DNA of 64,000 nucleotides. Source: a virus. The notes under the pieces are model-generated. The model was not told the origin of the DNA. It saw nothing but the letters and a program-made list of their open reading frames with translations, and searched no databases. Both the position numbers and the translations under genes were made by a program. Positions 11,304 through 45,808 of the stretch are shown here, in pieces (the stretch's first letter is position 1; the number at the start of each line of letters is the position of its first letter). Location: IMG/VR virus record IMGVR_UViG_3300045988_117041; one strand, written 5' to 3'.

Positions 11304-11528
11304 GTGTGTGACCTAAAAGCGAGAGCATGGGAAATACACACCCTTGCTTATTGTTATCACTGGTCTTTAGCAGAAATAAAAGCACTTTCCGTTAAAGAAA
11401 GAAAAATGTGGTATTTAATGGTGCTTAAACAGAAAAGAGCAGAAGAAGTTGCATTGAAGGGCAAAGACAAAGTGGAACCATCACCACTTGATGAAATGCT
11501 AGAAGAAGAAAAGGACTTTGTAATATAA
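11304..11528 (+). CDS. Small tail-assembly protein (second chaperone-position ORF)
   Basis: 74 aa, directly upstream of the tape measure gene. The start codon is uncertain. Confidence 0.4.
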   Translation: MCDLKARAWEIHTLAYCYHWSLAEIKALSVKERKMWYLMVLKQKRAEEVALKGKDKVEPSPLDEMLEEEKDFVI

Positions 11529-11547
11529 GAGAAAGGAGGTTAATACT

Positions 11548-14500
11548 ATGGGCGCATTTGGTCTAGGTTTAGTGCTTAATTTTACCGATAACGCAACCGC
11601 AGGTATGAATAAAGTTTCTAACACCTTTAATTTAATGTCGCAAAACGCAGACGCTATGGTGTCGTCTGTAGAAGGTTCACTGAGTAGATTGTCGAACATG
11701 GGTATTATTGGTTCAACACTCATGCAGTTTGGTGATACCATGCAATCCGCAGGAGCGGGAATTTTAAACACCTACGAAAAAATCGGTAATAAAATAACTT
11801 CTATCGGTATGGATATGTACTCTGCAAGAGCACAGCTAACATCATTGTATGGTGGTGCTGACCCTGCCGAGGAACAGTTAAACAATATTATGACTTATGC
11901 AAGAAAGTCGGTGTTTGCTTATCAAGACGTGTTAAAAGCCGTCATTATGATGAAAGCAAATGGTATTGAAGCACTAGAGGAAGTAACAAGCACAAGTGGT
12001 AAGTCAACACAGAAGTTGATGGACTATGCTTCCGACCTAGCCGCATTTAACCCGCAAATGCGTAACTCATACGGAACTGGTGTTAGAGCCGCTATGGGTG
12101 CTATCAATGAGTACATAGCAGAAGGTAACGCTATTTCATTGAAACGTGGTGCGTCCCTAGATATTAACTCCATTCTGGGAGAAGATAAGGGTGCAACGAT
12201 TGAAGAACGTACAAGACAGATAGCAGACCTCATGGAGAAGTTAAACATGGTTGGTCTTACTGCTGGTCTTGCAGGAACACCTATGCAACAGTTATCTAAC
12301 ATGGGCGACTTAGTGTTCCAGACGTTTTCAAAAATATCTGATAATGGTGTGTTTGAGAAGTTTAGTGAAATACTTGCAACTCTCACCACACCTATACAAA
12401 GACTTGCGGACGAGACAGATATATTTGACCGTGTAGCAAGGTCTTTAGCTGACGCTATGTTAGCCATTATGAATCCTATTCAGAAGGTTGCAGAGTATCT
12501 AGCAACGTGGATAGAACCTATATTAGAGTTTGTAGCACAACACCCTAAACTTGTAGCCATGATAGGTGTCATTGGTGGTATAGCGGGTGTGTCATTACTC
12601 GCCGCAGGTATGTTACTCAAACTTGTAGGTAGTATTACCATGTTACAAGTAAGCCTGGGACTTTTAAGATTGAGCGGGTTAGGTGGTATAGGTATATTTA
12701 AGATGATGATTACCGCTGTAGGTGGTCTTATATCTGCAATAGCACCTTTTGTAGCCATAGCCTTTTTAATGTATGAAGCCTGGACTAATAACATTCTGGG
12801 TATACGTGATGCGTTGACCGCGTTCATACAAGACGTTATGTTCTTAGGGACTGTGTTAGTAGACGCTTTGAGTGATGATACAATTTCCTATGATATGTGG
12901 GTGAAAGCCCGTGACATGGGACTATTGCCCTTCATAGAAACAATACTTGACCTTAAGTATAACGTGATTGATTTTATCAATGGGTTTAAGCAAGGACTAC
13001 AAGACATTAAGTCTTTTGTAGACCAAGTAGCAAACACCATGACACCGTTTGGATTCACGTTAAAAGACATTACAGACAAGGTTACAGAACTACTTGATAA
13101 GTTTGTAGGGTTCAAGTTTTCGTCTGGCTGGGAAAGCGCGGGAAAGACATTCGCTATCATAGGAAGTGCTTTACTTGTAGCATTACCCGCAATTAAGATA
13201 GTGTCTATACTGTTTGGTGCTATGACCTCACCTATTGGACTTATTGCCGCAGGAATAGCTTTAGTAGTCATGAACTTTGACAAGCTGAAAGAAGTCCTGG
13301 GTAATATACCGGGTATGATTGAAAACCTAGACCTTAAGTCTTTAGGAGGTTATATATCTGCCGCGTTGTTAGGACTTTTAGCAACTATCAAAGGTGGTTC
13401 ATTCGCCTCTGGTTTTGCCAGTGTTATGTTGGGTGTGTTCAAAGGCGGGTTTGGGTTATTAATGAGTTTAGGCTCCTTCTTTGGCCCAATGATAATTAAG
13501 TTCTTTCCTATGTTAGTCAAAGGTCTTTGGAGCATGATACCAGCAGGTATACAGTTATTTGCTGGTCTGTTTGCGGGTGTGTTTACAAAAATGCTACCCC
13601 TGTTTGGTGCTAAAGTCATTGCGCTAGGCGGTAGAGTACTTGCACCTATACTGTCTATCTTTGGTGGTCTGGGCGCGAAGTTATTACCTTTACTACTGAA
13701 AGTAGGAGGGACATTATTGGGTGCCATTGGTGCTATATTCGGGCCTATCATAAGTGCTATAGGCGGTGTTCCTCTGTTAATTGGTGGTGCTATCATAGCC
13801 GCTATTGCTGTAGTAGTAGCGTTGATAACCAATAACGGTGAAGGAATAAAGAACGCCTTTGAGAAGATATGGAACGCAATACCAGAACCTATACAGGGTG
13901 TTATCATTAAAGTAGGTCAAATGCTGTCCGGGTTAGCAAATAAGCTGATAGACGCATTAGGACTTAGACCTTTAATGAACACCATACAGCAGAACCTTCC
14001 ACAGATTATTCAGTGGTTCAGTAACCTAGGAAACCAGATATTAGGTATATTCAGTAAGTTAATCACCTGGGTAAAGGGTGCATGGGACGGATGGCTGGGA
14101 GACCTTATAAGAAACATTGGTTCCTTTGTGGGTAATGTAATCACAATCGTAGGTGGTCTGTTAGCTGTACTGATTCCTATAGTCATGGACTTAATCAGTG
14201 GTATACTTGATGTAGTGTTACCTATCGTTGACGGAATTGGTGCTATCATCAATGACGTTATGGACGTAGTGAACGGTATACTAGAGTTTATCATTGGTGT
14301 GTTCACTGGTGACTGGGGTAAAGCCTGGGACGGTGTTGTGTCTACGTTCTCTGGCATATTCAACGCCGTGAAAGATATTTTTAAGACAGTTATCAATGCA
14401 GTAATAGGTCTTGCGAATAAGTTTATCGGTGCACTGAATAAGATAAGTATTCCGGGAACAGATATAGGTGTTAATATTCCAGAGATACCGTTACTGAACA

Positions 14501-17101: not shown

Positions 17102-17542
17102 ATGAGTAGTAAAGTGTTAGCAGGAATGTACAGAGGAACAGTAGTAAGTGTAGACGACCCGGAGAACAGATACAGAGTTTTAGTGTGTGTCCCTAGCGTT
17201 ACAGGTGAATATGCCGCTGGCTGGGCTGAACCGTGTTTTCAGTATTGTGCCGATACAGAAGGTGATTGTTTCCTTCCCGTAGTTGGAGACACCTTATGGG
17301 TTATGTTTGAAGAAGGTAAGTTAAACAGACCTGTGTGGATTGGAAACTGGTATTCTACAGCTAAAGCACCACAGGACATTGCCACCAGTAAAACAAAACG
17401 TGTCATTATGTACCAGGGTACTAAAATTGTAATTGGTGGGGGTGTTGTAGAAGTAGTAGGAAACCTTGCAGTACAAGGCAACATTACCGCAACAGGAAGT
17501 ATAAGTGCAACCGGTACAGTGACGGGCAGTAATATAAGATAG
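17102..17542 (+). CDS. Baseplate spike, gpV/gp5 OB-fold family
   Basis: GTVVSVDDPENRYRVLVCVPSVTG...WAEPC...VGDTLWVMFEEGKLNRPVWIG matches the gpV signature. Confidence 0.75.
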   Translation: MSSKVLAGMYRGTVVSVDDPENRYRVLVCVPSVTGEYAAGWAEPCFQYCADTEGDCFLPVVGDTLWVMFEEGKLNRPVWIGNWYSTAKAPQDIATSKTKRVIMYQGTKIVIGGGVVEVVGNLAVQGNITATGSISATGTVTGSNIR

Positions 17543-17552
17543 AGGTGATTTA

Positions 17553-17951
17553 ATGAGTGACAGAAAGCAAATACGGGGAATAAGTTTCCCGTTCCGTATC
17601 AACGTGAGAGGTGGTATTGCTATGAGTGTTACAAACACAAACACCTTTACACATACGGACGAAGCTATACATCAGTTGTTGACTACAGAGCGGGGAGAAC
17701 GTTTAATGGAGTTCTACCTGTATTCTGATTTGGACACACTGATTTTTGAACCCAATGACGAGACCACCAAAAGTCTTTTGGAGTTTGAAGTTAAGGACAC
17801 GATACAGACACATTTGAGTGACACCCTAGAGATTGACGATATACAGGTGACACAAGACAAAAACCTTATATTTGCAGATATTACATACCACCTTGTAAAC
17901 TTTGGTGGTAATCTGCATACAACGAGGGTGCAGATAGGAGGTTATCAGTAA
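17553..17951 (+). CDS. Baseplate wedge protein, gpW/gp25 family
   Basis: GISFPFRIN...IHQLLTTERGERLMEF...FEPND matches the GPW_gp25 signature. Confidence 0.8.
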   Translation: MSDRKQIRGISFPFRINVRGGIAMSVTNTNTFTHTDEAIHQLLTTERGERLMEFYLYSDLDTLIFEPNDETTKSLLEFEVKDTIQTHLSDTLEIDDIQVTQDKNLIFADITYHLVNFGGNLHTTRVQIGGYQ

Positions 17952-19438
17952 TGAGTAATGTAGGCAACAATATGTTAGACTACACCAACAGGGATTATGA
18001 ATCCGTGAGAAATGACCTTGTGTCCACTCTGCCAAAATACCTACCAGAGTACACGGACACGTCAGAATTAGACCCTGGAATCGTCATACTAGAGTTAATC
18101 AGCCGGGGAATAGATATACTCAACTTCTACCAGGATTCACAAGCTAATGAAGTGTTTTTGCAGTATGCGCAACAGAGGGAAAATATACTTGCAAACAGCT
18201 ATTCACTGGGTTACACCCCGGCAGAAGCAACACCATCTATATTTGATTTGGTCTTTGTGTTGAACAGTGTACAGAAACAGGCTGTGACAATACCCATGGG
18301 ATTTAAAGTGCACACTGTTAAGACAGAGGTTGACAGTGAAGTGTATTTTGAGACCACAAAAGACCTTGTTATTCCAGCGGGAAGTTTAGGTAATGAGAAA
18401 GACACCAGCGGTAATTATCTGTACACCGTAGAAGCAATACAGGGACAGACAATCGAAAGTGAATTAGTCGGAACCAGTACGGGTGCTGAGAACCAGGAGT
18501 TTACACTTGCATACGCGCCTGTAATATACACCAGTGTTTCATTGCTGATTAATGAAGGTACTGGTTTTACACAGTGGGACAGAGTAGATAATTTCATTGA
18601 TAGTCTTCCAGACAGTAAGCACTTCCGTGTCGTACTGAATATGGATAACAAAGCAAAGATTATCTTTGGTAATGGTGTTAGTGGTAAAATACCTAAACCT
18701 TACAAGAACGGTATCTACGCTTACTACAGAATCGGTGGTGGAACGATAGGTAATGTAGGTGAGAACACCATCACTGAAATGAATACCAGACCAGCGGTAG
18801 TGAAAGAGTGTTTCAATCCTAAACGCGCAAGAGTACAAGCCACAGACAAGGAAACCAATGACGAGGTTAGAATAAACGCACCAAAGTATAACATGACGAA
18901 GTATGCACCAGTGCGGGAGGAAGACCACTCTTATCTAGTGTTAAAGGAGTTCAAGACCAAACTTAAATTTGCGTCCGCGATAAGAGACCCAGATGATGTG
19001 GATTTAATTGACCTGTATGTGTTAGTCCGGGAAGAATACAGTGATACGTTCACACTTGATGATACACTTAAGGCAGAGATTGAATCCTACTTTGCAGAGT
19101 GTCAGATTGTGGGATGTAAACTGAAAGCATACCCGCCGACTTATAAGTCTATTGGTCTTGATTGTACACTTGAAGTAAAAGACACGTTTTTGCGGGACGA
19201 AGTGAAAGCTAATGTTGAGCAGTATTTAAGACAGTATTTCAAAATAGGTTATTATGATTTTGGACAAGAGTTATCCTTGACCGACCTTGAAGGTCTTGTG
19301 TCTACCAACATTGACGGCATAAGGGTGTTCCGTATAAACACAACACCATTGACAATAGTCCCGGCTAAGAGTGAGATTTTAACTTTAGGTTCGTTGACTA
19401 TATCCGCTACAGGAGGTGCTAAAGTTGTCACGAATTAA
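17951..19438 (+). CDS. Baseplate J-like protein
   Basis: 495 aa, directly after the gpW-like gene. Size and order match gpJ/XkdT. Confidence 0.7.
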   Translation: MSNVGNNMLDYTNRDYESVRNDLVSTLPKYLPEYTDTSELDPGIVILELISRGIDILNFYQDSQANEVFLQYAQQRENILANSYSLGYTPAEATPSIFDLVFVLNSVQKQAVTIPMGFKVHTVKTEVDSEVYFETTKDLVIPAGSLGNEKDTSGNYLYTVEAIQGQTIESELVGTSTGAENQEFTLAYAPVIYTSVSLLINEGTGFTQWDRVDNFIDSLPDSKHFRVVLNMDNKAKIIFGNGVSGKIPKPYKNGIYAYYRIGGGTIGNVGENTITEMNTRPAVVKECFNPKRARVQATDKETNDEVRINAPKYNMTKYAPVREEDHSYLVLKEFKTKLKFASAIRDPDDVDLIDLYVLVREEYSDTFTLDDTLKAEIESYFAECQIVGCKLKAYPPTYKSIGLDCTLEVKDTFLRDEVKANVEQYLRQYFKIGYYDFGQELSLTDLEGLVSTNIDGIRVFRINTTPLTIVPAKSEILTLGSLTISATGGAKVVTN

Positions 19439-22400
19439 GGCAGACGAATATCTTGAATACCTCTATGGTAGACTTCCCACACAATGGAGGTTATTAGACC
19501 AAGAAGAAGGTCTTCCTCTGTACAATTATCTTAAAGTGATTGTGTACGGAGGACTTGAAAAGAATATAGACCTTGCGAACAAGTTTACAGAACTGACAGA
19601 CCCGGTTAGGTGTCCTAGTCCGTTCTTTCCTACGTTATACGAATCCATAGGACTTAAGTATGACTGGGGAATCAGTGAAGTATATCAAAGACGTGTGTTC
19701 CAGAATATCGGTGAGTTAATGCGGCGTAGAGGTTCCTATAACTCAATCAGATATTTAATCCGTGTGTTGACTGGAATGGAGTGTAACCTTGACTACCAGA
19801 GAAATCCGGTAAAGAACTATGAGAACACAGACCTTGTAGCGTTCCAAGGATATAATAAAGGTGATATTACCGTCCTTGAAATGAAAGGTGAGACGACACA
19901 GGACACCACTGAGGGTTATAATGTACTTGATATAGTAGGTAAAACTGCTACAAGTGGTGATTGTCGTGTTAAAGTGTACGATAATGGTGTAATGCAAGTA
20001 ACTGGAACCCTTTTATCAGACAGTTCAGATATGTACATTAGTAATAACTACACTGCCGAGGAAAAGAAAAAACTTAAACCGGGAATATACACTTTAATAG
20101 GAGGTAATAAAGTATATCCAACACCTTTTTTTAAGTTTAGCAATGGTGAAGGTTTTATAGAAATAAAAAATAATACTAACACGACAATGGACGTAACACA
20201 GCGTATGTTAGACGCTGATTATAATGTTGTGTCTGGTGTGTGGGGTGGAAGAGGTGTCAAAGTAGTTCCGGGGTTATGTAGACCTTATGTAGTGTGTGAT
20301 AGTGATAATCCTAATATATTCGACCATTGGGCGTTAAAGATATATGATAAGGCTACCTACACAATACAGAATAACTATGGCTTCACCGTAGTAGGAAATC
20401 CAGTATCATTTGATATGGTGCCAACTAAGAGATTTTCAGAGTATGCGGGGAAGACATTGTACATTAGTGGTGAGATAGTTAGTGAGACAACTACCGCGGG
20501 CGTTCACACAGAAGTGTCTATAAACCACTATGACGGCACTGCATGGCAAGGTAGTAGTATCAAGTTAGGTGTTGGTAAGTTTAGAAACGTTGCATACACT
20601 GTACCAATGACAGCAGAAGGTTCCTATACACGTCTGATATTTAGACCTAGAAATGGCACCATGGTGTTAAATAATATCCGGGTTACTGAAAAACCTTACG
20701 TTGATGATAACAAAGTAAGTACAGGTGTTCAATTAATAAATTCGGATATGTTACCTAGTGTAAATAACAACGGTGTTACGATAAATAACAACGGTGATGG
20801 TAGTTTTACAGTCAAAGGTACTGCTACAGGATATATTACCAGTATCTATAATCTATCCTTATCACCCGGAACTTACTGTGTAAGCGGAAGGAAAAATAAT
20901 ACTCAATTTTTTATTCGTGTTAGCAAAGACGGTCAGAATTATGTCAATTATACCAATTCTTTTGAGATAAAGGGTGACGAAGCCTGGGTGAAAGCCTTTA
21001 TCCAAGTAGACAAGGGTAAGACAGCAAATGACACGATATGGCCTATGCTTAATACAGGTTCCGTAGCAAAACCATGGGAACCATTCACCTATGGTATTCC
21101 AGTGAAAGGACACGTAACACCAACGGAACCGTTTGAACCTTATTCAAAAAGTGTACCCTCACCGAGTATAGAGTTTAGACAGCCGTTCCATAATGTAGGA
21201 GACCCGGTAAATTTAATCAAGCTGAGATTATCGTCCAGAACGTCAAACGGTATAACTTATACCAACAACGGTGATGGAACATTCAGTATTACAGGTACTA
21301 ATACACTCGCCGCAGAAAACACCACTTTCAGAATAGACCAGACAGATGGTAATACGTCTGATATAACCACTTACGAGCCGGGTTATTATTCAATGCATTT
21401 TGAAGTGCTGGAAGGGGATAACACATCAGAAGAAATAGGTCTTGCGCTGTACTCACCCGGCATGAATAAGACATACGTGAGTGAAGCAACAACACCTATG
21501 TACGTGAGTGAGACAATCAAAGATGGAACTATAGTCCTTATCGTTAAAGGTGGTAAGACTGTAAATTCCAGAATAAGAGTACAGCTACAGAAGGGGTGTT
21601 TCTGTACAGACTGGAAACCTTATTCAGAAGGTGGTGTATACGAGTTCATCACCAGTAAGGGAAGACGTAACCTGTTATCACACACCAACATGGGTTACTA
21701 CGGTTTTTACGCAACACAGTATTCACGTTTGGAACGTGCGCAGACCCCTACTGATAAAAACGCTGTAAAAGCAATATGCACTAAAGCGGGACAGAATTAC
21801 GGTATAAGAAACAGGGTACCAGACTTTAAGGCAAACACCATTAAACCAAACACTATATATCAAGTGTCTTTTGATTACTACTTAAGCACAAACAACAATG
21901 TAGAGCTAAGGTGTGATTTACAGCGTGACGAAGATTGGGTCAAAGTTGTAGAATTTAATGCTAAGGCTACAGAAGTACAGAAGTGGAATAGTGTAGAATT
22001 TAATGCTAAGGCTACAGACTTTTTACAGATAAACACTGATTTAATATTGACCTTATATGTAAGTAGTGGCAGTAATGCTGTAGGTGATTATATCACCATT
22101 CAGAATCTACAGTTACACGAAACAGACTTACCTAACGAGTGGGTGCCAGCGTTAGAAGACCAGACAGCAGGAACACCAAACAATGATGATGTACAGTTAT
22201 TTGACGCGTCACAGTTACGTCCTTTACACACAGATAAAACTACTGTGACAGTGGCAAGTAATGTTATCACCATAACCACTACAGAAGCGTGGGGTGGTGC
22301 TAAGTACGAAATCACAGAGTTAGTGAAAGGCAGAGAAGTATTTATAAGTGGTGTTAAGAAGTCTGTAACGCCCGGTAGTACAGGAGAAACCGCACTGCAA

Positions 22401-23450
22401 GTTAAAATCACTAAAGCAGATGGCACCAAGTCATATACCTCAGAGGGACACAGTGTTGTAGTGGAAGACGATATTAAGTCTGCTATCGTTGAATTAGTAA
22501 CTAACAATACCGGGTCAGACTTAGAAGCACCTAAAACGGCTACTTTCACTGATGTAATGTTGAACTTTGGTAACAGAGCATACCCATGGAGACCTTATGA
22601 CCCGTCCACTGCAATAATACCAAAACCGGAACCAGTGAGTGATTATATCCAGCGGGCAATGATTAATTTAACAGCACCTTTAAGAAGTTGTGGACTAATC
22701 AATCCTGTACGTGATAGAATTGTAAGGACAGGTACTAAAGACGCGTACAAGTGGAAAGTGCATAGACGTGTAGGTGTTCAAGTATTAAATGGTACTGAGA
22801 GTTGGGAAGTGTCTTTCGTGCAAGGTAGTTATATCCGTTTCGCGTTGATTAACAATGACCTGTACGATATTGCGGGGCCAAGAATGTGTGATGGTCTTCC
22901 TTATGAATCAGTGTATGACAACACTATGACACATGAGTGTGTACACAGCAGTTTAGAGGACGGGCGAATAGGAATAACAATCCTTTTAAGCAGATTAGCA
23001 ACGTCTGATGTAGCCGGGTTTAAATCGTGGCTGACAAGTAATAATCTGACCGTGTTATATGGTAAAGCACAGATTGACTATGAAGACCTGGACGCAACGT
23101 CACAAAGACAACTGAGTGCGATAGAGGCATATAACAGCGAACACACAACCTATATGTATACAATGGACAGTGTGAACCCGGATTTACTCGTAGAATACAC
23201 AGGCTTTGGACGTTATCTGTTTATTGCAATGTTGGCGGCGGATATAGAACAGTTAAGGAATATGGACAATAGTGTTAAACTCGTAGAGAGGTTCTTAACA
23301 CAGTTCGTACCGTACTATATAACACCTGTAGTAAGTGGTGAAGTTTCACAGCAAGAAATAACAGGTACACACCATATGGGTGTTATTGTCACTGAATCAA
23401 AGATATACACACTTGTACAGTACAGGTCAGATAACCTAACACCACAGTAA
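19425..23450 (+). CDS. Giant baseplate/tail-fibre protein (gpI-like N-terminus plus repeated beta-sandwich-type modules)
   Basis: About 1340 aa. TTG 19425 lies 8 nt after AGGAGG. Position matches gpI/XkdU. Contains repeated NNGDG(S/T)F..GT modules. Confidence 0.6.
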   Translation: MSRIKADEYLEYLYGRLPTQWRLLDQEEGLPLYNYLKVIVYGGLEKNIDLANKFTELTDPVRCPSPFFPTLYESIGLKYDWGISEVYQRRVFQNIGELMRRRGSYNSIRYLIRVLTGMECNLDYQRNPVKNYENTDLVAFQGYNKGDITVLEMKGETTQDTTEGYNVLDIVGKTATSGDCRVKVYDNGVMQVTGTLLSDSSDMYISNNYTAEEKKKLKPGIYTLIGGNKVYPTPFFKFSNGEGFIEIKNNTNTTMDVTQRMLDADYNVVSGVWGGRGVKVVPGLCRPYVVCDSDNPNIFDHWALKIYDKATYTIQNNYGFTVVGNPVSFDMVPTKRFSEYAGKTLYISGEIVSETTTAGVHTEVSINHYDGTAWQGSSIKLGVGKFRNVAYTVPMTAEGSYTRLIFRPRNGTMVLNNIRVTEKPYVDDNKVSTGVQLINSDMLPSVNNNGVTINNNGDGSFTVKGTATGYITSIYNLSLSPGTYCVSGRKNNTQFFIRVSKDGQNYVNYTNSFEIKGDEAWVKAFIQVDKGKTANDTIWPMLNTGSVAKPWEPFTYGIPVKGHVTPTEPFEPYSKSVPSPSIEFRQPFHNVGDPVNLIKLRLSSRTSNGITYTNNGDGTFSITGTNTLAAENTTFRIDQTDGNTSDITTYEPGYYSMHFEVLEGDNTSEEIGLALYSPGMNKTYVSEATTPMYVSETIKDGTIVLIVKGGKTVNSRIRVQLQKGCFCTDWKPYSEGGVYEFITSKGRRNLLSHTNMGYYGFYATQYSRLERAQTPTDKNAVKAICTKAGQNYGIRNRVPDFKANTIKPNTIYQVSFDYYLSTNNNVELRCDLQRDEDWVKVVEFNAKATEVQKWNSVEFNAKATDFLQINTDLILTLYVSSGSNAVGDYITIQNLQLHETDLPNEWVPALEDQTAGTPNNDDVQLFDASQLRPLHTDKTTVTVASNVITITTTEAWGGAKYEITELVKGREVFISGVKKSVTPGSTGETALQVKITKADGTKSYTSEGHSVVVEDDIKSAIVELVTNNTGSDLEAPKTATFTDVMLNFGNRAYPWRPYDPSTAIIPKPEPVSDYIQRAMINLTAPLRSCGLINPVRDRIVRTGTKDAYKWKVHRRVGVQVLNGTESWEVSFVQGSYIRFALINNDLYDIAGPRMCDGLPYESVYDNTMTHECVHSSLEDGRIGITILLSRLATSDVAGFKSWLTSNNLTVLYGKAQIDYEDLDATSQRQLSAIEAYNSEHTTYMYTMDSVNPDLLVEYTGFGRYLFIAMLAADIEQLRNMDNSVKLVERFLTQFVPYYITPVVSGEVSQQEITGTHHMGVIVTESKIYTLVQYRSDNLTPQ

Positions 23451-24410: not shown

Positions 24411-25544
24411 ATGAAGTATATAAATGCGTCTGGCGGTGGTGGAGGTGGTACTGGTTCTGATGATGTGACAGCACTCAACAAACACGTACTGGAACCGTAC
24501 ACAGCAGTAACAAAAGAGAGTGATGATGACCCCGCAAAAGGAACTATGAAGAATTTAGTAGACCGGGCCACAATAACGCACACATCAGATAATGCAACAA
24601 AGGTGTTGTTAGCAGATGAAGCCTATATAGCAGAAAACTCAGATGGTGTTAGACGTGTTGAGTTACGTTACAACGGTGATGAAGGTTTTATAAAGACTAA
24701 CACATTAGTTGCATACCCAGAATCACAAGCAGGAGCAAAGTTTGGTATTACAGCAGACAAGATAGCAAACGGTCAAGTAGTGTTGGGAATGACCGGGACG
24801 TATAAAGGTTTAGGTAATGCTACAGCCGCACAAGTCCTTAGTGGTTATTCGTTTTCTTCTGCCGCTTTAAGTAATGCCTCTGGTTCTATGCCAGATAGAG
24901 GTGCATGGGGTGCGACACTTGCAATCAACGGCAGTGTTACAATACCTGCCGGGTATCACAATGGTTCTGGACGAATAACACAAAGTATTGCCACAAAAGG
25001 AGCAACCACTATAACACCCATGTCTGCACAGCAGACAGCCGTAAGTGCTGGCACCTATTGTAGTGGCAATATAATCGTTGCTGGGAACGGCAACTTTGTA
25101 GCAGGAAACATTAAAAAGGGAGTAAACATCTGGGGTGTGGTAGGAACTTTTGAAGGTTGGGTACCTACACCACAGGACTGGTATTACAACGGTGTAAACA
25201 CCTATGGAGTAGACTGTAATAGTACATACTTCCGATTTGAGAATACCCGCATATACTGTTTTTCTACTTCGTCTTCTAGGGTAAATAGTATCCAATTCAG
25301 AAGAGCCTACAACGTACAATCGTATTCAAGACTTAATTTTAATGGACATTTTATAAGTAACGCGGCGACTATTAGAGTAGACTTAGAAGGAAGTAATATA
25401 GGCACCACAGTTACTAATGTACCAAATGGAGCGGGTTCTTTTAGTATTGATATATCACAGATATCCTCTTTTTCTGGTTCAGAAGCCCTATGGATACGTG
25501 ACCTTAAAGGAGGTCTGTTCTTTAATAGAATATCACTATCTTAG
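24411..25544 (+). CDS. Tail fibre / receptor-binding protein with a switchable C-terminal tip (expressed orientation)
   Basis: ATG 24411 follows GGGAGG. Contains a Gly run, SGGGGGGTGS. The 26-bp repeat at 25142-25167 lies inside the coding frame. Confidence 0.65.
   Translation: MKYINASGGGGGGTGSDDVTALNKHVLEPYTAVTKESDDDPAKGTMKNLVDRATITHTSDNATKVLLADEAYIAENSDGVRRVELRYNGDEGFIKTNTLVAYPESQAGAKFGITADKIANGQVVLGMTGTYKGLGNATAAQVLSGYSFSSAALSNASGSMPDRGAWGATLAINGSVTIPAGYHNGSGRITQSIATKGATTITPMSAQQTAVSAGTYCSGNIIVAGNGNFVAGNIKKGVNIWGVVGTFEGWVPTPQDWYYNGVNTYGVDCNSTYFRFENTRIYCFSTSSSRVNSIQFRRAYNVQSYSRLNFNGHFISNAATIRVDLEGSNIGTTVTNVPNGAGSFSIDISQISSFSGSEALWIRDLKGGLFFNRISLS
25142..25167. repeat. Left inverted repeat (IR-L) of the invertible fibre segment
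   Basis: AGGAACTTTTGAAGGTTGGGTACCTA. It is the exact reverse complement of 26081-26106. Confidence 0.95.
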
Positions 25545-25583
25545 ACCTTTGCTTTTGAAGGTTGTGGTATCCATTACGTAAGT

Positions 25584-25646
25584 GTTTATTAATTAATCTC
25601 CATCTGTGTTGGTATCTACCATGCAAGTGGAGATTAATTAATAAAC
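25584..25646. terminator. Central perfect 19-bp hairpin between the two convergent fibre tips
   Basis: GTTTATTAATTAATCTCCA (25584-25602) pairs perfectly with TGGAGATTAATTAATAAAC (25628-25646), with a 25-nt loop. Confidence 0.5.
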
Positions 25647-25682
25647 GTCCATATTTTAATAACACACCCCAAAAGTTATAGG

Positions 25683-26129
25683 CTATTCTACATAGATGTG
25701 ATAAATCATTAGTTGGTTATTTGGGGCATACCAATTTGAGACAATTAACTCAAAAATTGAGGTTTGATGAAATGCGGATATATCTGTAACTATAAAGGTA
25801 TCATCTTTATTGATAACGAAGTTATTGTAGTTTGCTATCTCTACACCATTAAGTTTTTCAATAAAGTTAAATTTACCGATTGTGTCGGCGGACGTACATC
25901 TTGTCCTTATACAAAGTTTATTAAATGGAGAAAAATTAAATGCAGAACTTGCAGTTAATCTTACACCCGTTTTATACGGAATATTTAGTAGGATACACCC
26001 ACTCTCAAATGTCACACCTTGTCCGCTAGTTACGTGTAGACCTACTACGTTATTACCCATCTTGTATAAGTCCCAAGAGCTAGGTACCCAACCTTCAAAA
26101 GTTCCTGTAATAGGGACTAGAAATGTGAC
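25683..26129 (-). CDS. Silent alternative tail-fibre C-terminal cassette (no start codon of its own upstream of the repeat)
   Basis: Minus-strand frame is open from 26129 to 25683 and reads VTFLVPITGTFEGWVPSSWDLYKMGNNVV...HIYVE. It passes through IR-R in the same phase as the fibre gene. Confidence 0.6.
   Translation of the reverse strand, partial: VTFLVPITGTFEGWVPSSWDLYKMGNNVVGLHVTSGQGVTFESGCILLNIPYKTGVRLTASSAFNFSPFNKLCIRTRCTSADTIGKFNFIEKLNGVEIANYNNFVINKDDTFIVTDISAFHQTSIFELIVSNWYAPNNQLMIYHIYVE
26081..26106. repeat. Right inverted repeat (IR-R) of the invertible fibre segment
   Basis: TAGGTACCCAACCTTCAAAAGTTCCT, the reverse complement of IR-L. Identity stops abruptly on both sides. Confidence 0.95.
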
Positions 26130-26146
26130 TTAGAGTGTGGTATAAT
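26118..26146 (+). promoter_or_regulatory. Extended -10 promoter just outside IR-R
   Basis: TAGAAA, 17-nt spacer, TGgTATAAT (26138-26146). Confidence 0.45.
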
Positions 26147-26176
26147 GAAAGACATATGAGAAAGGAGGTTACAGCC

Positions 26177-26590
26177 ATGGACGGTGACGATATCGTAAAA
26201 GTAGTAGAAGGTGAGCCGATAGTGACAGACCCCTTAGACATATGGGTGTTAGACGACCCCGCCAGAAACGGTCACGGTGAAATAGTGTGTTTAAGAGAAA
26301 ATTCCACAGGTGATGATTCCTTGACACACTACGTCATAGACCAGTCGCAAATGTTTGCGGGAAAGTGTGATGATTATATCTTAGGTTACTGTTACGAAGT
26401 GACGAAAGACAAAGACGGGAAAGTGTTACAGACCAGTGTGTATCCCTACAAAGACTGGGAGACACTGAACACTATTCAGAGACTTTGGGAAGAATCACAG
26501 CGCAACAAAAGAAATCTGGATATGACAAGTGAAACACTCGTTGACCTTGACTACAGACAGACAATGATGGAGTTAGGTCTTACACCATAA
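26177..26590 (+). CDS. Hypothetical protein in the XkdW position
   Basis: ATG 26177 lies 7 nt after AAAGGAGG. Sits between the fibre genes and the XkdX-like ORF. Confidence 0.4.
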   Translation: MDGDDIVKVVEGEPIVTDPLDIWVLDDPARNGHGEIVCLRENSTGDDSLTHYVIDQSQMFAGKCDDYILGYCYEVTKDKDGKVLQTSVYPYKDWETLNTIQRLWEESQRNKRNLDMTSETLVDLDYRQTMMELGLTP

Positions 26591-29003: not shown

Positions 29004-29029
29004 GCCCGGTCTAACCCACCGGGTTTTTG
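29004..29029 (+). terminator. Terminator closing the late/lysis operon
   Basis: GCCCGGT pairs with ACCGGGT, followed by TTTT. Confidence 0.6.
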
Positions 29030-29030
29030 T

Positions 29031-29059
29031 TTGCAATAAAATCGGTTCAGTGTTACACT
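29031..29059 (+). promoter_or_regulatory. Sigma-A-type promoter of the helicase gene
   Basis: TTGCAA, 17-nt spacer, TGtTACACT. Confidence 0.45.
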
Positions 29060-29089
29060 ATATCCAAAACTAAAACGAGAGGTGACGAA

Positions 29090-31738
29090 GTGTTAAAAGT
29101 AAAACCCGTAGGAAAAGAAAGACACTTATATTTATCAGAGTGCGCGACATTAACAAACCCCACCAAGAAAGAAGTAAAATCAATTAAATCGGCAACCACC
29201 TTTACGAATCCAGCATATGAGCGGGCAAAGAAATATACTCATTACACGTCCTATAAGATTCCCCAAACACTATGCTTTAGTAGTGTAGGTTATTTTAGAG
29301 GTGTTCCAGCTATCAGATTCCCTATAGGTCTTAGATTTGAGGTATCAGAAGACAGACCGATACATAAGGTCATAGACTACAGGGTGTTTGAAAAACCAAA
29401 ACATAGACCGCCAGAGTTTAAATTAACTTTGCGGGAAGACCAAGAAAGAGCGTTGCTACAGTACGTGAGTATAAACGCATGGCAAGAAAAACAGCCTTGT
29501 GGTCTTGTACAGTTGCCGACCGGGAAAGGAAAGACTATATTATCTTTAGCGATAGTGAATGAGTTTAAGTTAAAGACGTTAGTCATAGTGCACACCAATG
29601 GTCTTGTTAAAGCCTGGACTGACGATATAAAGAAAGCCTTTGACGGTAAAGTTGTGCCGGGTCTTATAAAAGCTAAAAGCAAGACTGTAGGGGACTATAT
29701 AACCATAGCAACCATACAGACGCTTAATAACATACCAGAGGACGAATTAGAGACCTTATTTGATACCTTTGGGCTTATTATACAGGACGAGTGCTTGGTT
29801 GGTGATACCTTAATCACCATGCAAGACGGTTCATATAAACCCATTAGAGACATTAAAAACGGGGATAAAGTTGCTGTAGGCGGCACCGTTAGTAATGTGT
29901 TTAGTAGGAAGTCTGAGATATACGAATTAGTATGTAGACATTCCACTATAAAAGGTAGTCCTACACACAAGACATGGTGTGTTAAAAAGAAAAACGATAA
30001 ACACAATTACTATAGTAAGGAAGACCTTGTACTACTTCCTCTAAAAGACATAACCAAGGACTATTTAATACCTGTTAGGATAGAAGAACCAATAAAGAAA
30101 TCTAACACTTTAGGCAGTAATTTATGTGCTTTTATCGCACTCATAATCTGTAGTGGACACATAGATAAAAAAAGTAATCGGGTTGTTGTAAATGTATCAA
30201 AAAACACTGACTTCTATAGAAGTGTATTTGAAGAAGGGTGTAAGTGTTTTGGTGTTACTGCAAGTACCAGTTATGATTGCCGAGGAAACTTAAGAATGTG
30301 GACAAACAACGTAGATATAAGATATTTTCTTGAAACCACTATGAATATAAACAAAGGTAAAAAGAACAATGTTGTTAGTGTCCCACGCTGGATACTTAAT
30401 GCGTCAAACACAGAGGTTAAATCATTTATAGAAACGTGTTTTAACTGTAGCGGTGATTTACAGGAAAACAAAGCAATGCACTTTAACTGCGCGTCACAAT
30501 CGTTTTCTATGGGACTTGTGTTATTACTTAAAAGGTTTGGTGTATTAAGCACTATTCACTGTGTTAATAAACGTAAAGGTGTTAAAATTCAATACCGTGT
30601 TACTGTAGGAGGTAAGAACTTTAATAAGTTTATGGACACATTTAATCTGCTGTCCTATAAAATGACCGATAGCAGAAATACAGGTAAACACACGTTCAAT
30701 AACAGATATGCGGGTAACTACTTTCTTAGTGATGTAGTAAGTTGTAAGTCTTTAGGTTACACAGAGGACGTATATGATTTCACTGTGAGTAAAGATAACC
30801 ATAGTTTTATAGCAAATGGCGTTCTAACTCATAATTGCCATCACTGCCCTAGTACAAGCTATGAGTTAGTGAATAGGTTCAGAGCCACCTATAGATTAGG
30901 TCTCACAGCAACACCAGAAAGAAATGACGGTCTCACATTCTTAATGACTTTATATTTTGGCGGGTTCTGTTATGAGTACAACAAAGAGTTGCAAAAAGAC
31001 CAGAAGAAAGACAAAGACATTTTACCATTTGAGGTGATACACCGGGCCATGAAATATTCTTTCACACCTATGCTACGTCCTGTAGGTCAGAGAGGGTATA
31101 AAGTATTGCCGTTTAATTATCCCGTGAATAAATATGGCCCGGAAGATATACCTATTGATTCCATACCTTATAGAGACAGACCGAAAGTAAAGTACAACGA
31201 GGTATCAGACCTCGTGATGTTAGATGAAAATAATATTAAACAGGTGTTACATGATGTATATACAGAAGGTGTTATCAATAACCGTAGCTGTGTGGTGTTT
31301 TTTACCAGTCGTGTGCACTGTGAACACTATTTCCAGAAGTTCAAAGAAATGGTGACACACACTACTAGGTATACGTCCGGGAATACAAAGTTTAGTAATA
31401 TAGCACAGTTATACACAGGTGCTACCAAAGATGATGAAACATGTTTAAAACGTGCAATAAACCGGGAAGTAATAATTACCTTTACCACCTTTGGTAAAAG
31501 CACAGAAGGGACTAATATACCGTGTTTAGAAGTAGCGTTTTTAGTTACTTCCATTAATGACGGTAAGAACACCGAACAGGCCATAGGACGTATTCGCCGT
31601 AAGTGTGACACATACCATAAATTAGGGCGCGTAAGAGTGTATGACTATGACTATAACAAAGTGTATATGTTGAGGTCTCATTACAGAACACGTCTTGAAA
31701 GGTATAAGACCTTGAAAGGTAGAATCATTGATGTATAA
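29090..31738 (+). CDS. SF2 DNA helicase (DExH box), interrupted by an intein
   Basis: Motif I LPTGKGKT. Motif II IIQDE|intein|CHH. Motif III GLTATPERNDG. GTG 29090 follows GAGAGG; the track start at 29027 overlaps the terminator and promoter. Confidence 0.8.
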   Translation: MLKVKPVGKERHLYLSECATLTNPTKKEVKSIKSATTFTNPAYERAKKYTHYTSYKIPQTLCFSSVGYFRGVPAIRFPIGLRFEVSEDRPIHKVIDYRVFEKPKHRPPEFKLTLREDQERALLQYVSINAWQEKQPCGLVQLPTGKGKTILSLAIVNEFKLKTLVIVHTNGLVKAWTDDIKKAFDGKVVPGLIKAKSKTVGDYITIATIQTLNNIPEDELETLFDTFGLIIQDECLVGDTLITMQDGSYKPIRDIKNGDKVAVGGTVSNVFSRKSEIYELVCRHSTIKGSPTHKTWCVKKKNDKHNYYSKEDLVLLPLKDITKDYLIPVRIEEPIKKSNTLGSNLCAFIALIICSGHIDKKSNRVVVNVSKNTDFYRSVFEEGCKCFGVTASTSYDCRGNLRMWTNNVDIRYFLETTMNINKGKKNNVVSVPRWILNASNTEVKSFIETCFNCSGDLQENKAMHFNCASQSFSMGLVLLLKRFGVLSTIHCVNKRKGVKIQYRVTVGGKNFNKFMDTFNLLSYKMTDSRNTGKHTFNNRYAGNYFLSDVVSCKSLGYTEDVYDFTVSKDNHSFIANGVLTHNCHHCPSTSYELVNRFRATYRLGLTATPERNDGLTFLMTLYFGGFCYEYNKELQKDQKKDKDILPFEVIHRAMKYSFTPMLRPVGQRGYKVLPFNYPVNKYGPEDIPIDSIPYRDRPKVKYNEVSDLVMLDENNIKQVLHDVYTEGVINNRSCVVFFTSRVHCEHYFQKFKEMVTHTTRYTSGNTKFSNIAQLYTGATKDDETCLKRAINREVIITFTTFGKSTEGTNIPCLEVAFLVTSINDGKNTEQAIGRIRRKCDTYHKLGRVRVYDYDYNKVYMLRSHYRTRLERYKTLKGRIIDV
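29792..30835 (+). mobile_element. Intein (348 aa) with a LAGLIDADG-like endonuclease domain in helicase motif II
   Basis: Block A CLVGDTLITMQDGSYKPIRDI. Block B GSPTHKTW. Blocks F/G VYDFTVSKDNHSFIANGVLTHN, then +1 Cys. The exteins rejoin to DECHH. Confidence 0.8.
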
Positions 31739-32662: not shown

Positions 32663-33121
32663 ATGAAATTTAAAGAAGCATATAGACTTATGAGAGAAGA
32701 CAAGAAAGTGAAGTTGCCTAGCTGGTCTGGATTTTGGTGTTGGGATAAAAACAAAGAAAGTATTATCATGCACACTAAAGAAGGAGAAGTGTTAGACATA
32801 CGAGACACCAAGAACGTAGGGTATACACTTACGAATATCTTTAGTGATGAATGGGAAGAAGCAACACCAATAAACACCCCGCTGATTGGCGGTTCATTAG
32901 CAATGTCATTTGAAACGGCATTAATGTTAATGAAGTGTAAGAAACGTCCTATGAGAAGAAACACCTGGGAAGACGGGACGTATATTATTACATGGGACAG
33001 TGCAGAAGGACCGAGACTTAAAAAGACTACGGATAAATCATGTAGCTTTAAAGTATATACACCAACACAAGAAGATATGTTCACAGATGATTGGACATAT
33101 TTTGTACACAAGGAGGACTAA
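32663..33121 (+). CDS. Tandem DUF2829 (Tad2-like) protein
   Basis: Two copies of the DUF2829 pattern: MKFKEAYRLMREDKKVKLPSWSG...FSDEWEEA and MSFETALMLMKCKKRPMRRNTWEDG...FTDDWTYF. Confidence 0.55.
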   Translation: MKFKEAYRLMREDKKVKLPSWSGFWCWDKNKESIIMHTKEGEVLDIRDTKNVGYTLTNIFSDEWEEATPINTPLIGGSLAMSFETALMLMKCKKRPMRRNTWEDGTYIITWDSAEGPRLKKTTDKSCSFKVYTPTQEDMFTDDWTYFVHKED

Positions 33122-40478: not shown

Positions 40479-40529
40479 AACTACACACTGTATAGTGTAG
40501 AAATAAAACACACATAAGGAGAAAAAGAC

Positions 40530-40808
40530 ATGAGTAAATTAGGAATCAAGGAAGTAGCTGAGAGAGCTGCAGAGAAGACCGGGAAAAGTGTGAAACTGTC
40601 AAAAGACGTTATCAATGCCACGCTTGAAACAATCCAGGAGGAACTTGCCGAAGGCAATGACGTTGCGTTTGTCGGCTACGTGTCCTTTAACGTTGAAGAA
40701 GTTGCCGCACGTTCCGGCAGTTGCGCGGGCCGTAAGTGGTCTAAACCCGCACACTCTGTAGTGAAAGCAAAGCTGGGAGCAAAGCTGAAAAACGCTGTCG
40801 AGGAATAA
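40530..40808 (+). CDS. HU/IHF-family histone-like DNA-binding protein
   Basis: 92 aa. ...VINATLETIQEELAEGNDVAFVGYVSFNVEEVAARSG...AKLGAKLKNAV fits the HU fold pattern. Confidence 0.75.
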   Translation: MSKLGIKEVAERAAEKTGKSVKLSKDVINATLETIQEELAEGNDVAFVGYVSFNVEEVAARSGSCAGRKWSKPAHSVVKAKLGAKLKNAVEE

Positions 40809-40819
40809 GTCTTTCGTGT

Positions 40820-40848
40820 TTGACTGATTGTAGGTGTTATGCTATGAT
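40820..40848 (+). promoter_or_regulatory. Sigma-A-type promoter of the polymerase gene
   Basis: TTGACT, 17-nt spacer, TGcTATGAT. Confidence 0.5.
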
Positions 40849-40894
40849 AACAACGTAGTGTAGCACCTATTTTTATTGTAGAGAAGGTGAGAGA

Positions 40895-44173: not shown

Positions 44174-44212
44174 AATCTGACAGTTATCAAGACGCAAAGT
44201 AAGAGGTGTTAT

Positions 44213-44380: not shown

Positions 44381-44381
44381 T

Positions 44382-45800: not shown

Positions 45801-45808
45801 ACGTGAAA

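Follow-up and report, generated by a model that had tools for sequence, protein, structure and literature searches.

Alternative tail-fibre tips between inverted repeats in a gut phage without a recognisable invertase

The window, a stretch of 64,000 nucleotides of phage DNA, carries a tail-fibre gene, which is preceded by the baseplate genes and followed by the lysis genes. The gene has its ATG at position 24411 and ends at 25544 (translation ..GVVGTFEGWVPTPQDWYY..NRISLS, then stop), and one homologue of its product, P0003, bears the source name "tail protein." The gene is accompanied at its 3' end by a compact set of features.

24411 to 25544, plus strand: gene for the tail-fibre or receptor-binding protein, 377 aa (constant part, repeat and cassette A); open reading frame, translation, 581 homologues
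24411 to 25141, plus strand: constant N-terminal region, aa 1-244, common to all tip variants; 94-100% conserved across proteins with different tips
25142 to 25167, plus strand: left inverted repeat (crossover region), encoding GTFEGWVP, the conserved joint between constant part and tip; exact in 25 of 25 typed loci
25168 to 25544, plus strand: cassette A, the tip expressed here, 125 codons past the shared last base of the repeat, and a stop; model pLDDT 81-92
25551 to 25575, plus strand: third copy of the site, degenerate and directly oriented, just past the cassette A stop; has the core CTTTTGAAGGTTG
25583 to 25646, no strand assigned: palindromic hairpin between the tail-to-tail cassettes; 19-bp perfect arms, -46.3 kcal/mol, z = -7.06
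25683 to 26080, minus strand: cassette B, encoding the alternative, silent tip in 132 codons and a stop, with neither start codon nor promoter of its own; model pLDDT 72-93
26081 to 26106, minus strand: right inverted repeat, exact reverse complement of the left arm; exact in 25 of 25 typed loci
26107 to 26132, minus strand: eight-codon stub VTFLVPIT and the stop that closes the minus-strand frame upstream of the repeat; translation
26118 to 26146, plus strand: promoter-like site (TAGAAA, 17 nt, TG-TATAAT) shortly past the right repeat; consensus match only
26177 to 26590, plus strand: conserved 137-aa gene downstream of the switch; in the same place in all relatives at any cassette number

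A sequence-only reading of this DNA had described perfect 26-bp inverted repeats bracketing two in-frame C-terminal cassettes, and both parts of that description are borne out. The left arm at 25142-25167, AGGAACTTTTGAAGGTTGGGTACCTA, has its exact reverse complement at 26081-26106, with 913 nt between the arms, and arm identity breaks off sharply on all four repeat flanks. At up to three mismatches, only these two copies of the repeat exist in the 64 kb, and none was found in 100 shuffles. The minus-strand frame, which runs from 26132 down to 25683, reads (stop)VTFLVPIT-GTFEGWVP-SSWDLYKMGNNVV..HIYVE(stop). Since both frames read GTFEGWVP across the repeat, the codon phase is identical on the two strands. 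Translation confirms that a stop codon lies immediately upstream of the minus-strand frame and that there is no start codon from this stop to the repeat. When the segment is inverted in silico, 126 aa are exchanged for 132 aa, which yields a 384-aa protein; the left junction of this B state consists of the left flank, the repeat and GCTCTTGGGACTTATAC.

Beyond the two cassettes, the 913-bp segment contains a 138-nt spacer with the hairpin and nothing else. From its predicted stability, the hairpin is probably a terminator acting in either orientation. Transcription of the genes that follow could start afresh at the promoter-like site beyond the right repeat, and a strong ribosome-binding site, AAAGGAGG, follows at 26161-26168. 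The 137-aa gene that comes next, which has no Pfam or PHROGs match and no likeness to any recombinase, possibly encodes a fibre chaperone.

The two tips had been called unrelated, which holds for their sequences, BLASTP detecting no kinship between them (E = 8.7), but not for their predicted structures. Structure prediction of both versions, a check that the same reading had proposed, suggests that each tip folds as a carbohydrate-binding-module-like β-sandwich of ~130 aa. The tips thus have a predicted fold in common, and they form one cassette family. The constant region (aa 1-244) gives a poor model as a monomer. The silent cassette is not a decayed remnant, since it is intact, conserved, expressed as a fusion in other genomes and confidently predicted to fold like the expressed tip.

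Both orientations of the segment are found in public assemblies. We typed 25 related assemblies, 16 of which are contigs of 50-85 kb, and found 13 in orientation A and 12 in orientation B, with the same exact repeats in all. The predicted 384-aa fusion is present in the protein database (P0001 with 98% and P0002 with 97% identity, both at 100% coverage), and one fusion protein, P0123, occurs on 16 contigs. Cassette B is expressed as a 384-aa fusion gene, complete in the assemblies, in L003, L004 and L020-L029, so that the tip swap foreseen from the single sequence recurs in many independent assemblies. After flipping, the 913-bp segment of L003 and L004 matches at 98% identity, with flanks 99.5-99.9% identical. 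The segment is 100% identical among three A genomes and six B genomes. Pairs of opposite orientation display unbroken identity of up to 4.46 kb across the switch, the same span as pairs of the same orientation. In a tree built from 21 kb of flanks, seven B genomes require seven changes, random labelling averaging 5.8, and orientation is without phylogenetic signal. The flipped segment measures 913 nt in most loci and 912 in L027, and both 26-bp repeats are always exact, which suggests that exchanges are usually precise. Closely related genomes hence exist in both orientations with their breakpoints at the inverted repeats, as in gene-altering programmed inversions, the definition of which we have taken from PMC9881135.

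Together, these comparisons make us highly confident that the segment is a fibre tip that truly flips, and the flips are recent and repeated. If co-infecting phages exchange whole switch modules, independent flips might be overcounted; such exchange cannot account for identical 4.4-kb tracts that differ solely by inversion. It is conceivable that the second orientation is an assembly artefact of the inverted repeat, since assemblers can be misled by repeats and the contig of a related C. symbiosum prophage stops at its repeat, with a run of N at the joint. However, the 26-bp repeat is shorter than any k-mer or read used, and state B was recovered from 12 independent samples by three different assembly pipelines, including one contig at 1046-fold coverage (the depth of sample ERZ807471) and another assembled at k = 141. 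The latter value is far above the repeat length, which rules out assembly error, and we give practically no credence to an artefact.

It is also very improbable that the switch is inactive, an old inversion polymorphism whose two fixed arrangements have spread among backgrounds by co-infection recombination. The genomes are indeed mosaic, left and right flanks yielding different nearest neighbours, and the assemblies show no within-sample mixture, contigs of both states from one sample being absent among the samples examined. However, because inverted segments suppress internal exchange, fixed differences between A and B would be expected under an old polymorphism, whereas the 913 bp show full identity between the two states, and this identity extends outwards by 1.9 kb on one side and 1.6 kb on the other. 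Moreover, relatives show many different permutations among genomes that are 98-99.7% identical.

Further searches added little to the set of typed loci. Short cluster members, considered as possible contigs ending at the repeat, turned out to be frameshifted fragments or mis-clustered unrelated peptides. The locus had no blastn match in the INPHARED phage collection, and the phage group is without a deposited isolate. In IMG/VR, the exact 26-mer gave no match and a degenerate 20-mer gave five contigs, none of them related to the window, while a scan of JGI metagenomes returned only two more close loci, both in state A.

Some relatives carry many more cassettes, on both strands: the window has two, L126 four, L017 seven, and L015 and L019 at least nine. 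Blocks of cassettes are inverted or permuted between genomes that are 98-99.7% identical; for example, positions 3785-4643 of L015 are inverted in L019, exactly between 18-nt repeats. Since cassettes on both strands are permuted between near-identical close relatives, the system is a shufflon, of which the window carries the smallest, two-cassette form. That such a shufflon exists, with cassette numbers reaching at least nine, had escaped the sequence-only reading, as had the degenerate third site and the stable hairpin. This third site (25551-25575) occupies the same post-stop position as the intact site at 4146-4171 of L017, and it is what is left of the head of one more cassette, "J," still present in relatives. 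Recombination between direct repeats, with deletion, would be expected to yield both the variable cassette number and the relic site in the window.

The crossover repeats of these relatives are staggered stretches of 15-26 nt with no common core. In L015, perfect stretches begin at 3735, 3755, 3765, 3778 and 3785, and the outermost pair does not overlap. Each silent cassette in the relatives is truncated at its own point of a 70-nt joint. Farther away, a regex scan for multi-cassette loci found none in 80 distant relatives from bacterial genomes, and an exact-repeat scan of distant relatives detected only three with inverted repeats. A prophage of C. symbiosum and a MAG of the Peptococcaceae have two-cassette versions, and in both no recombinase adjoins the switch where its surroundings are visible. 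The repeats of independent lineages are unrelated DNA sequences. In Enterocloster phage PMBT24, which has the nearest cultured fibre homologue, the annotation listing shows no recombinase near that homologue.

The phage itself is an uncultured myophage of the human gut with a genome of ~81-84 kb and no integrase. It is apparently of a virulent type, and its host probably belongs to the Lachnospiraceae. It had been labelled PBSX-like, a label that we rejected in view of the genome size, the replication and modification genes and the relatives of the portal protein, which is 42% identical to the portal of Bacillus phage BCD7.

No serine or tyrosine recombinase is recognisable by Pfam or PHROGs in the whole ~81-kb genome, new kinds being beyond the reach of the profiles. 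The Pfam scans covered every ORF in 17951-63532 and the 17 kb outside the window, with precomputed Pfam hits for the structural genes, and PHROGs was run on 20 ORFs of unknown function. There is no Resolvase-family match in the window ORFs or the remaining 17 kb of the genome, no Phage_integrase-family match anywhere in the genome and no match to the PHROGs integration/excision category among the 20 ORFs. The six-frame translation gave no match to a Gin-like query sequence. Many ORFs lack any Pfam or PHROGs match. All scans were also devoid of a reverse-transcriptase domain, because of which a diversity-generating retroelement was rejected; the cassettes differ over their full length and not at adenine-specific positions. 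A Hin/Gin-like site was rejected as well. The crossover site of Gin, Cin, Min and Hin is 26 bp long, with two 12-bp half-sites around a 2-bp core. The window repeat fits in length, yet its end hexamers are, read by eye, only 5-of-6 symmetric, its sequence is unlike hix/gix sites and no invertase was recognised. The genome does encode candidate machinery for general recombination.

46052 to 47191, plus strand: phage RecA homologue, candidate catalyst of short-homology exchange; Pfam RecA, E = 1.2e-52
47538 to 48098, plus strand: Holliday-junction resolvase, candidate machinery; PHROG 2002, E = 2e-22
48482 to 49378, plus strand: Cas4/RecB-like exonuclease, candidate machinery; PHROGs 1706, 2506 and 1990

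We propose that the locus is a host-range switch, in which the constant part (aa 1-244) ends in the joint GTFEGWVP with two tips arranged tail to tail behind it, each starting with the same 26 bp in opposite orientations. Reciprocal exchange between the repeats would flip the 913 bp, fusing the silent tip in frame and parking the other, while transcription would stay equal in both states thanks to the central palindromic hairpin and the promoter-like site beyond the right repeat. We tentatively infer that there is no dedicated invertase and that the phage itself carries out the exchange by short-homology recombination at identical stretches of 15-33 nt. The module responsible, encoded within 39474-50801, would comprise RecA, a single-strand-binding protein, the Cas4-like exonuclease and the Holliday-junction resolvase. 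Flips would be rare and then amplified by selection from hosts with different surface sugars. Taken as a whole, with the catalyst included, this explanation has in our judgement an even chance of being correct. Extended to the relatives, it becomes a more speculative possibility: an invertase-free shufflon of a virulent phage, in which general recombination might use individually placed micro-homologies of 15-26 nt to invert and sometimes delete cassettes, the use of tips among at least nine being set by selection. For RecA-type recombination, 15-26 nt is little homology, which counts against short-homology exchange; sites of 10-34 bp also serve site-specific systems, and invertases can come in trans from the host.

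The same switch might be operated by one or several host invertases acting site-specifically in trans on phage sites that have evolved to suit them, which we consider rather unlikely but worth serious attention. Lachnospiraceae genomes abound in tyrosine and serine recombinases, while Pfam and PHROGs found none in the phage. The arms are short, perfect and sharply ended, like those of known shufflons, and a segment length kept within 1 nt between exact repeats suggests a usually precise exchange. The C. symbiosum and Peptococcaceae versions, with no adjoining recombinase where visible, are compatible with an enzyme supplied in trans, as has been proposed for recombinase-less inversion in bifidobacterial prophages (PMC6109161). 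However, the place of the crossover stretch within the joint varies among the multi-cassette relatives, in part without overlap, and no core is shared, and the repeats of independent lineages are unrelated in DNA sequence. One enzyme with one recognition sequence therefore cannot serve all of them. In addition, a virulent phage would be left dependent on the enzyme of whatever host it infects.

Staggered coreless sites are a problem as well for a phage-encoded recombinase of a kind invisible to profiles, such as the product of the 137-aa gene at 26177-26590, which we regard as improbable. Many ORFs are without a profile match, and this gene stays beside the switch in every relative, just as gin and cin hold their position beside the switch in Mu and P1. 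However, the 137-aa protein has neither catalytic motifs nor similarity to recombinases, it is shorter than known invertases, and genes right behind fibre genes mostly encode chaperones.

Tail-fibre inversion switches are textbook knowledge for temperate enterobacterial phages, and those recently reported in gut prophages have, to our knowledge, a dedicated invertase every time. The sequence-only reading had likened the locus to the Mu G, P1 C and p15B Min switches, a comparison that stands for the layout. As in Mu (G segment, Gin), P1 (C segment, Cin) and p15B Min, short inverted repeats lie inside the fibre gene at the border between constant and variable parts, and inversion joins promoterless alternative C-terminal cassettes in frame, giving a different receptor-binding tip; the Min shufflon likewise has multiple cassettes. 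The comparison fails for the enzyme, the assembly gene and the sites. In contrast to these temperate enterobacterial phages, the present one is a Gram-positive-type virulent myophage with no serine invertase gene beside the segment or elsewhere in the genome and no fibre-assembly gene of the U/U' type within the segment. Unlike the 12-2-12 sites of Gin, Cin, Min and Hin, the crossover stretches of its relatives have no site in common.

The arrangement also resembles the shufflons of tyrosine recombinases, namely R64 (Rci), the bifidobacterial prophage Rin system (PMC6109161) and the tail-fibre shufflon of BV01-like Phocaeicola phages (PMC13596623). In these, C-terminal cassettes on both strands form a compact block behind a constant N-terminal gene for the receptor-binding protein, and short repeats separate cassettes that are permuted between near-identical genomes; the human gut setting is shared too. 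However, a recombinase gene flanks those blocks, and one repeated core is used, be it the 11-bp rix, a 10-bp motif plus extensions or the 19-bp sfx (PMC6109161, PMC13596623). Here, no recombinase is recognisable, the stretches are staggered along the 70-nt joint, and the number of cassettes ranges from two to at least nine, as if deletions were allowed.

Inversion without a flanking recombinase has a precedent. In bifidobacterial prophages integrated at tRNA-Met, a ~500-bp inversion at a short repeat trades the 3' end of a structural gene for a small gene segment in inverted orientation, much as here, and its authors suggested an invertase in trans (PMC6109161). That case concerns a prophage, two genomes, an 8-bp repeat and a gene of unknown function, whereas here there is no integrase, 25 loci have been typed, and there are predicted tip folds and a multi-cassette series. 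Anabaena cyanophages have large invertible regions with repeats of 400-700 bp, for which, in their authors' view, a dedicated recombinase may be absent and general recombination may maintain the isomers (bioRxiv 10.64898/2026.02.14.705889). They too exist in both orientations, uncorrelated with phylogeny, but their region is ~30 kb long, their repeats are hundreds of bp and no gene is altered, unlike here.

Many natural genomes of a common, uncultured and apparently virulent Bacillota gut phage without a recognisable invertase thus record a swap of receptor-binding tips. Should the driver be general recombination or an enzyme of the host, searches that demand a neighbouring recombinase would miss such switches, and host-range prediction from a single assembly would be incomplete. 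The cassette series would be a natural set of exchangeable tips, predicted to bind carbohydrates, on one scaffold, a set that could be useful for engineering phages against gut Clostridia. Silent cassettes are now annotated as separate hypothetical minus-strand genes, an example being the 125-aa "uncharacterized protein" of Myoviridae sp. ctgXL3.

As for the switch itself, the 26-mer AGGAACTTTTGAAGGTTGGGTACCTA lies at 25142-25167 within the fibre gene (ATG 24411, stop 25544) and its exact reverse complement at 26081-26106, the two arms being separated by 913 nt. No further copy was found in the 64-kb window at up to three mismatches, or in 100 shuffles. The fibre gene reads ...NIWGVV-GTFEGWVP-TPQDWYYNG...NRISLS-stop, and the minus strand from 26132 to 25683 reads stop-VTFLVPIT-GTFEGWVP-SSWDLYKMGNNVV...HIYVE-stop. 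Since both frames read GTFEGWVP through the repeat, the two strands share one codon phase there. Eight codons upstream of the repeat, a stop closes the minus-strand frame, with no start codon in between. When 25168-26080 is inverted in silico, a 384-aa protein results, in which the last 126 residues are swapped for 132 new ones. The sequence-only reading, which had proposed perfect inverted repeats, a shared codon phase, a silent frame stop-closed upstream and without its own start, and this exchange of tips, is therefore borne out on all of these points. It passed over the degenerate third site and the hairpin listed below.

Features of the switch (window coordinates)
25168-25544, plus strand: cassette A, the expressed tip
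25551-25575, direct orientation: degenerate third site copy, core CTTTTGAAGGTTG, directly past the cassette A stop
25583-25646: very stable palindromic hairpin between the tail-to-tail cassettes (-46.3 kcal/mol, z = -7)
25683-26080, minus strand: cassette B, the silent tip
26118-26146: extended -10 promoter-like site, immediately beyond the right repeat (pattern match)
26161-26168: strong ribosome-binding site, likewise beyond the right repeat and preceding the 137-aa gene (pattern match)
26177-26590: 137-aa gene, always directly after the switch, no match in Pfam or PHROGs

Because the hairpin is palindromic, transcription from the fibre gene would meet the same structure in either state, and we infer a regulatory layout composed of this hairpin, the promoter-like site and the ribosome-binding site. 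In public annotation, cassette B (25683-26060, minus strand) is listed as a hypothetical protein in its own right, 125 aa long and begun at an internal ATG (UniRef A0A8S5QR22 of Myoviridae sp. ctgXL3 is one such entry), and the cassettes of relatives are in part called as small genes of 81-163 aa. Such calls of cassettes as independent genes are probably annotation errors.

The predicted inverted arrangement exists in public genomes. A search of a 5.8-billion-protein collection with the hypothetical inverted fusion protein returned P0001, which is 98% identical to it at 100% coverage, and P0002, which is 97% identical and sits on an 81,021-bp contig, while P0123, from the same cluster, is found on 16 contigs, mostly of 50-85 kb. 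Two related loci, L003 and L004, have the 26-bp repeats of the window at equal spacing, and their 913-bp segment is 98.1-98.5% identical to that of the window only once reverse-complemented, the flanks being 99.5-99.9% identical. Orientation was typed at 25 loci, which come from independent samples and were assembled by three pipelines; of these, 13 are in state A (window orientation) and 12 in state B (segment flipped), each with both repeats exact and a segment of 912-914 nt. The ratio of about 5:1 (A:B) among the cluster-member contigs listed is no frequency estimate, because sampling was not random. We rejected the notion that state B is an assembly artefact, since one B-state contig was assembled with k = 141 and another at 1046-fold coverage, so that a 26-bp repeat cannot have misled the assemblers. 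In a B-state variant of the fibre, P0049, a single base is missing among the opening bases of the left repeat (corresponding to window 25139-25145), leaving it frameshifted at 263 aa; the frameshift is present in only some of the eight members of its cluster and may reflect either an error in sequencing or an exchange that was imprecise at the edge of the repeat.

Orientation does not track relatedness. Three A genomes (L032, L034 and L035) and six B genomes (L020, L022, L023, L025, L028 and L029) have a 913-bp segment that is 100% identical, and for most genomes the closest one of opposite orientation is about as near as the closest one of the same orientation, whether in the left flank, the right flank or the segment. 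In a neighbour-joining tree built on 21 kb of flanking sequence from 18 genomes, the seven in state B require seven state changes, which is the maximum (random labelling gives a mean of 5.8). Because the genomes are mosaic, we also measured how far identity runs unbroken across the switch. Between L023 (B) and L034 (A) it extends 1,881 nt leftward, takes in the flipped segment with both its repeats, and continues 1,614 nt rightward, a 4.46-kb tract with the inversion as sole difference; the longest such tract between same-orientation genomes is 4.99 kb. An old fixed inversion polymorphism would have accumulated differences between A and B, and such differences are absent. From the assembled genomes compared, we conclude that the segment flips repeatedly, faster than one substitution per 4 kb. 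We regard the switch itself as well supported, with little room for doubt.

Tips A and B give no usable BLASTP alignment (E = 8.7). Both fusion proteins were modelled with AlphaFold from an alignment of 21-22 homologues; the constant part of the fibre, which is probably trimeric, came out poorly. The tip models are confident (pLDDT 81-92 for A and 72-93 for B), both being all-beta with a shared strand order, and in Foldseek both match one group of carbohydrate-binding modules (CBM29, CBM4, CBM6 and CBM86) with a target-normalised TM-score of about 0.6. The models suggest that both tips resemble lectin-type receptor-binding domains, as would be expected of a fibre that recognises sugars of the cell wall or capsule. 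The earlier description of the tips as unrelated holds for BLASTP but not for the modelled folds, and the idea that cassette B might be a decayed remnant is not sustained, given its confident model and CBM group in common with tip A.

The window holds the minimal form of a shufflon. Fibre homologues with a constant part 80-100% identical carry at least seven other tip types past the joint GTFEG[WY]VP, and we retrieved five of their loci. In these, the constant part is followed by a block of 1.7 to >3.4 kb made of tip cassettes only, on both strands. The cassettes, of 130-150 codons and all without a start codon, share an end motif (..YRIWLS, ..RIWFS, ..RIALS, ..RIRVQ) and are arranged head to head and tail to tail with gaps of 2-70 nt; there are four in L126, seven in L017 and at least nine in L015 and L019. 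Between genomes 98-99.7% identical, cassette blocks are inverted and permuted: L015 3785-4643 is inverted in L019, with ends exactly at 18-nt repeats, and two inversions, one at 20-nt and one at 33-nt repeats, suffice to convert L017 into L015. The degenerate third site of the window corresponds to the head of cassette J, which in L017 follows the first cassette's stop; the window lineage has therefore lost all cassettes but two. Deletions also seem to occur, since cassette number varies among close relatives and the window retains this relic, as expected if direct repeats recombine too.

Distant members of the fibre family are found in prophages or MAGs of Lachnospiraceae (Lachnoclostridium, Lacrimispora, Hungatella, Enterocloster and C. 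symbiosum), Paenibacillaceae and Oscillospiraceae. Two distant members carry inverted two-cassette tips of their own; their repeats, unrelated in sequence, lie at or just past the same joint. One is in a Peptococcaceae MAG (16-nt repeat), the other in C. symbiosum ATCC 14940 (repeats of 28 and 34 nt), on a contig ending at the repeat. The latter, a prophage fibre with an inverted second tip and repeats (FYNSGTWSN) at 8460-9373 of L051 ([Clostridium] symbiosum scaffold 182), is interrupted by a stretch of Ns at the joint, and the scaffold stops exactly at the repeat, as if mixed orientation had broken the assembly.

Invertible fibre tips and fibre shufflons are already known, as in Mu, P1 and p15B. 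For L015, every silent cassette was aligned with the joint of the expressed gene, a 70-nt stretch that encodes G T F E G Y V P T A T D L Y L R G N N I A G W. The silent cassettes are truncated on their 5' side at differing points of this joint.

Stretches identical to the joint (L015 coordinates)
from 3735: cassette J, 25 nt
from 3755: cassette C, 20 nt
from 3765: cassette I, 25 nt
from about 3769: cassette H, 19 nt with one mismatch
from 3778: cassette G, 20 nt
from 3785: cassette D, 18 nt
from about 3789: cassette F, 15 nt, shared with G

Whereas an R64-type shufflon repeats one core, the 19-bp sfx, these crossover stretches are staggered, with no motif common to all in L015 and no overlap between first and last, and are not copies of a single site. 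The Rin shufflon of bifidoprophages has a single repeated 11-bp rix core (PMC6109161), and the fibre shufflon of BV01-like phages a repeated 10-bp motif (PMC13596623).

The exchange mechanism is the interesting part of the system. The window is part of a genome of about 81.4 kb, in which we scanned every ORF of at least 50 aa at 17951-63532 against Pfam, as well as ORFs of the remaining 17 kb, taken from L008 and L005 (same phage, overlapping in a Hydrolase_2 gene); structural genes were covered by precomputed Pfam matches, and 20 unknown ORFs were run against PHROGs. Recombinases of the serine or tyrosine type, DDE and IS110-type transposases and reverse transcriptases were all without a match in these scans, and a Gin-like query (a weak test) had none in the six-frame translation. 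The likeness to Mu G, P1 C and Min is thus retained for the invertible fibre tip and lost for the catalyst, in which the system also departs from tyrosine-recombinase shufflons. With no recognisable recombinase in the phage, an invertase might be supplied in trans by the host, a serious alternative though less likely than the reading favoured below, or the phage might encode an enzyme of unrecognised kind, which is more doubtful still. The phage does encode a full general-recombination set.

Recombination genes (window coordinates)
39474-40478: single-strand-binding protein
46052-47191: RecA (E = 1e-52)
47538-48098: Holliday-junction resolvase
48482-49378: Cas4/RecB-like exonuclease
50277-50801: PD-(D/E)XK nuclease
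outside the window: DNA ligase

We tentatively favour a reading in which the exchange would need only short identity and would be performed by the phage's own recombination machinery, host-driven selection amplifying rare products, because of the lack of a recognisable recombinase, the general-recombination set, the staggered stretches and the apparent deletions. Counting against short-identity recombination, 15-26 nt is short for RecA-type exchange. Our literature search returned nothing on this phage group and no shufflon in a phage without any recombinase gene; the closest precedent is a 500-bp inversion without recombinase in two bifidobacterial prophages (PMC6109161).

All genes of the phage are on one strand, in the order terminase, portal, capsid, sheath, tube, tape measure, baseplate, a 1344-aa fibre-like protein, a 311-aa protein and the switchable fibre, followed by holin and lysis genes and then by replication, recombination and 7-deazaguanine modification genes. 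No integrase was found in the genome, where the recombination module at 39474-50801 is compact and also includes an HU-like protein. Among cultured phages, the virulent Bacillus phage BCD7 is closest by portal protein (42% identity) and Enterocloster phage PMBT24 has the closest fibre homologue (33% identity). The samples include metagenomes of the human gut (one from the HMP, others recorded as human gut metagenome or human faecal). The label "PBSX-like" was wrong, and the assignment to a Gram-positive host is probably right. Among genes for host interaction, a SpoVS homologue (51175-51474) points to a spore-forming Bacillota host, alongside a Tad2-like anti-Thoeris domain protein (32663-33121) and a PemK/MazF-like toxin domain protein with a coiled-coil tail (60464-61201). 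The 1344-aa protein (19416-23450, just upstream of the fibre genes; 1341-1348 aa among relatives) has no Pfam match and contains a short internal duplication (..VEFNAKATEVQKWNSVEFNAKATDF..). Two stretches of L008 outside the window (17489-18633 and 11396-12200, about 1 kb each) have no coding-strand ORF of at least 70 aa and no tRNA, and could be genome ends or regulatory regions. The 7-deazaguanine (queuosine-precursor) DNA-modification cluster at 51706-59601 comprises a QueD-like PTPS, a QueE-like radical SAM protein, GTP cyclohydrolase I, an FMN reductase, QueC fused to a second radical-SAM domain (571 aa) and a 722-aa DpdA/TGT-like transglycosylase. Finally, LAGLIDADG-endonuclease inteins are present in the ResIII/DEAD helicase (29027-31738) and the family-A DNA polymerase (40895-44173), and the large terminase (L006/L007 6341-9997) is 1218 aa with an intein in some relatives and 584 aa in others, so that intein content varies between near-identical phages.
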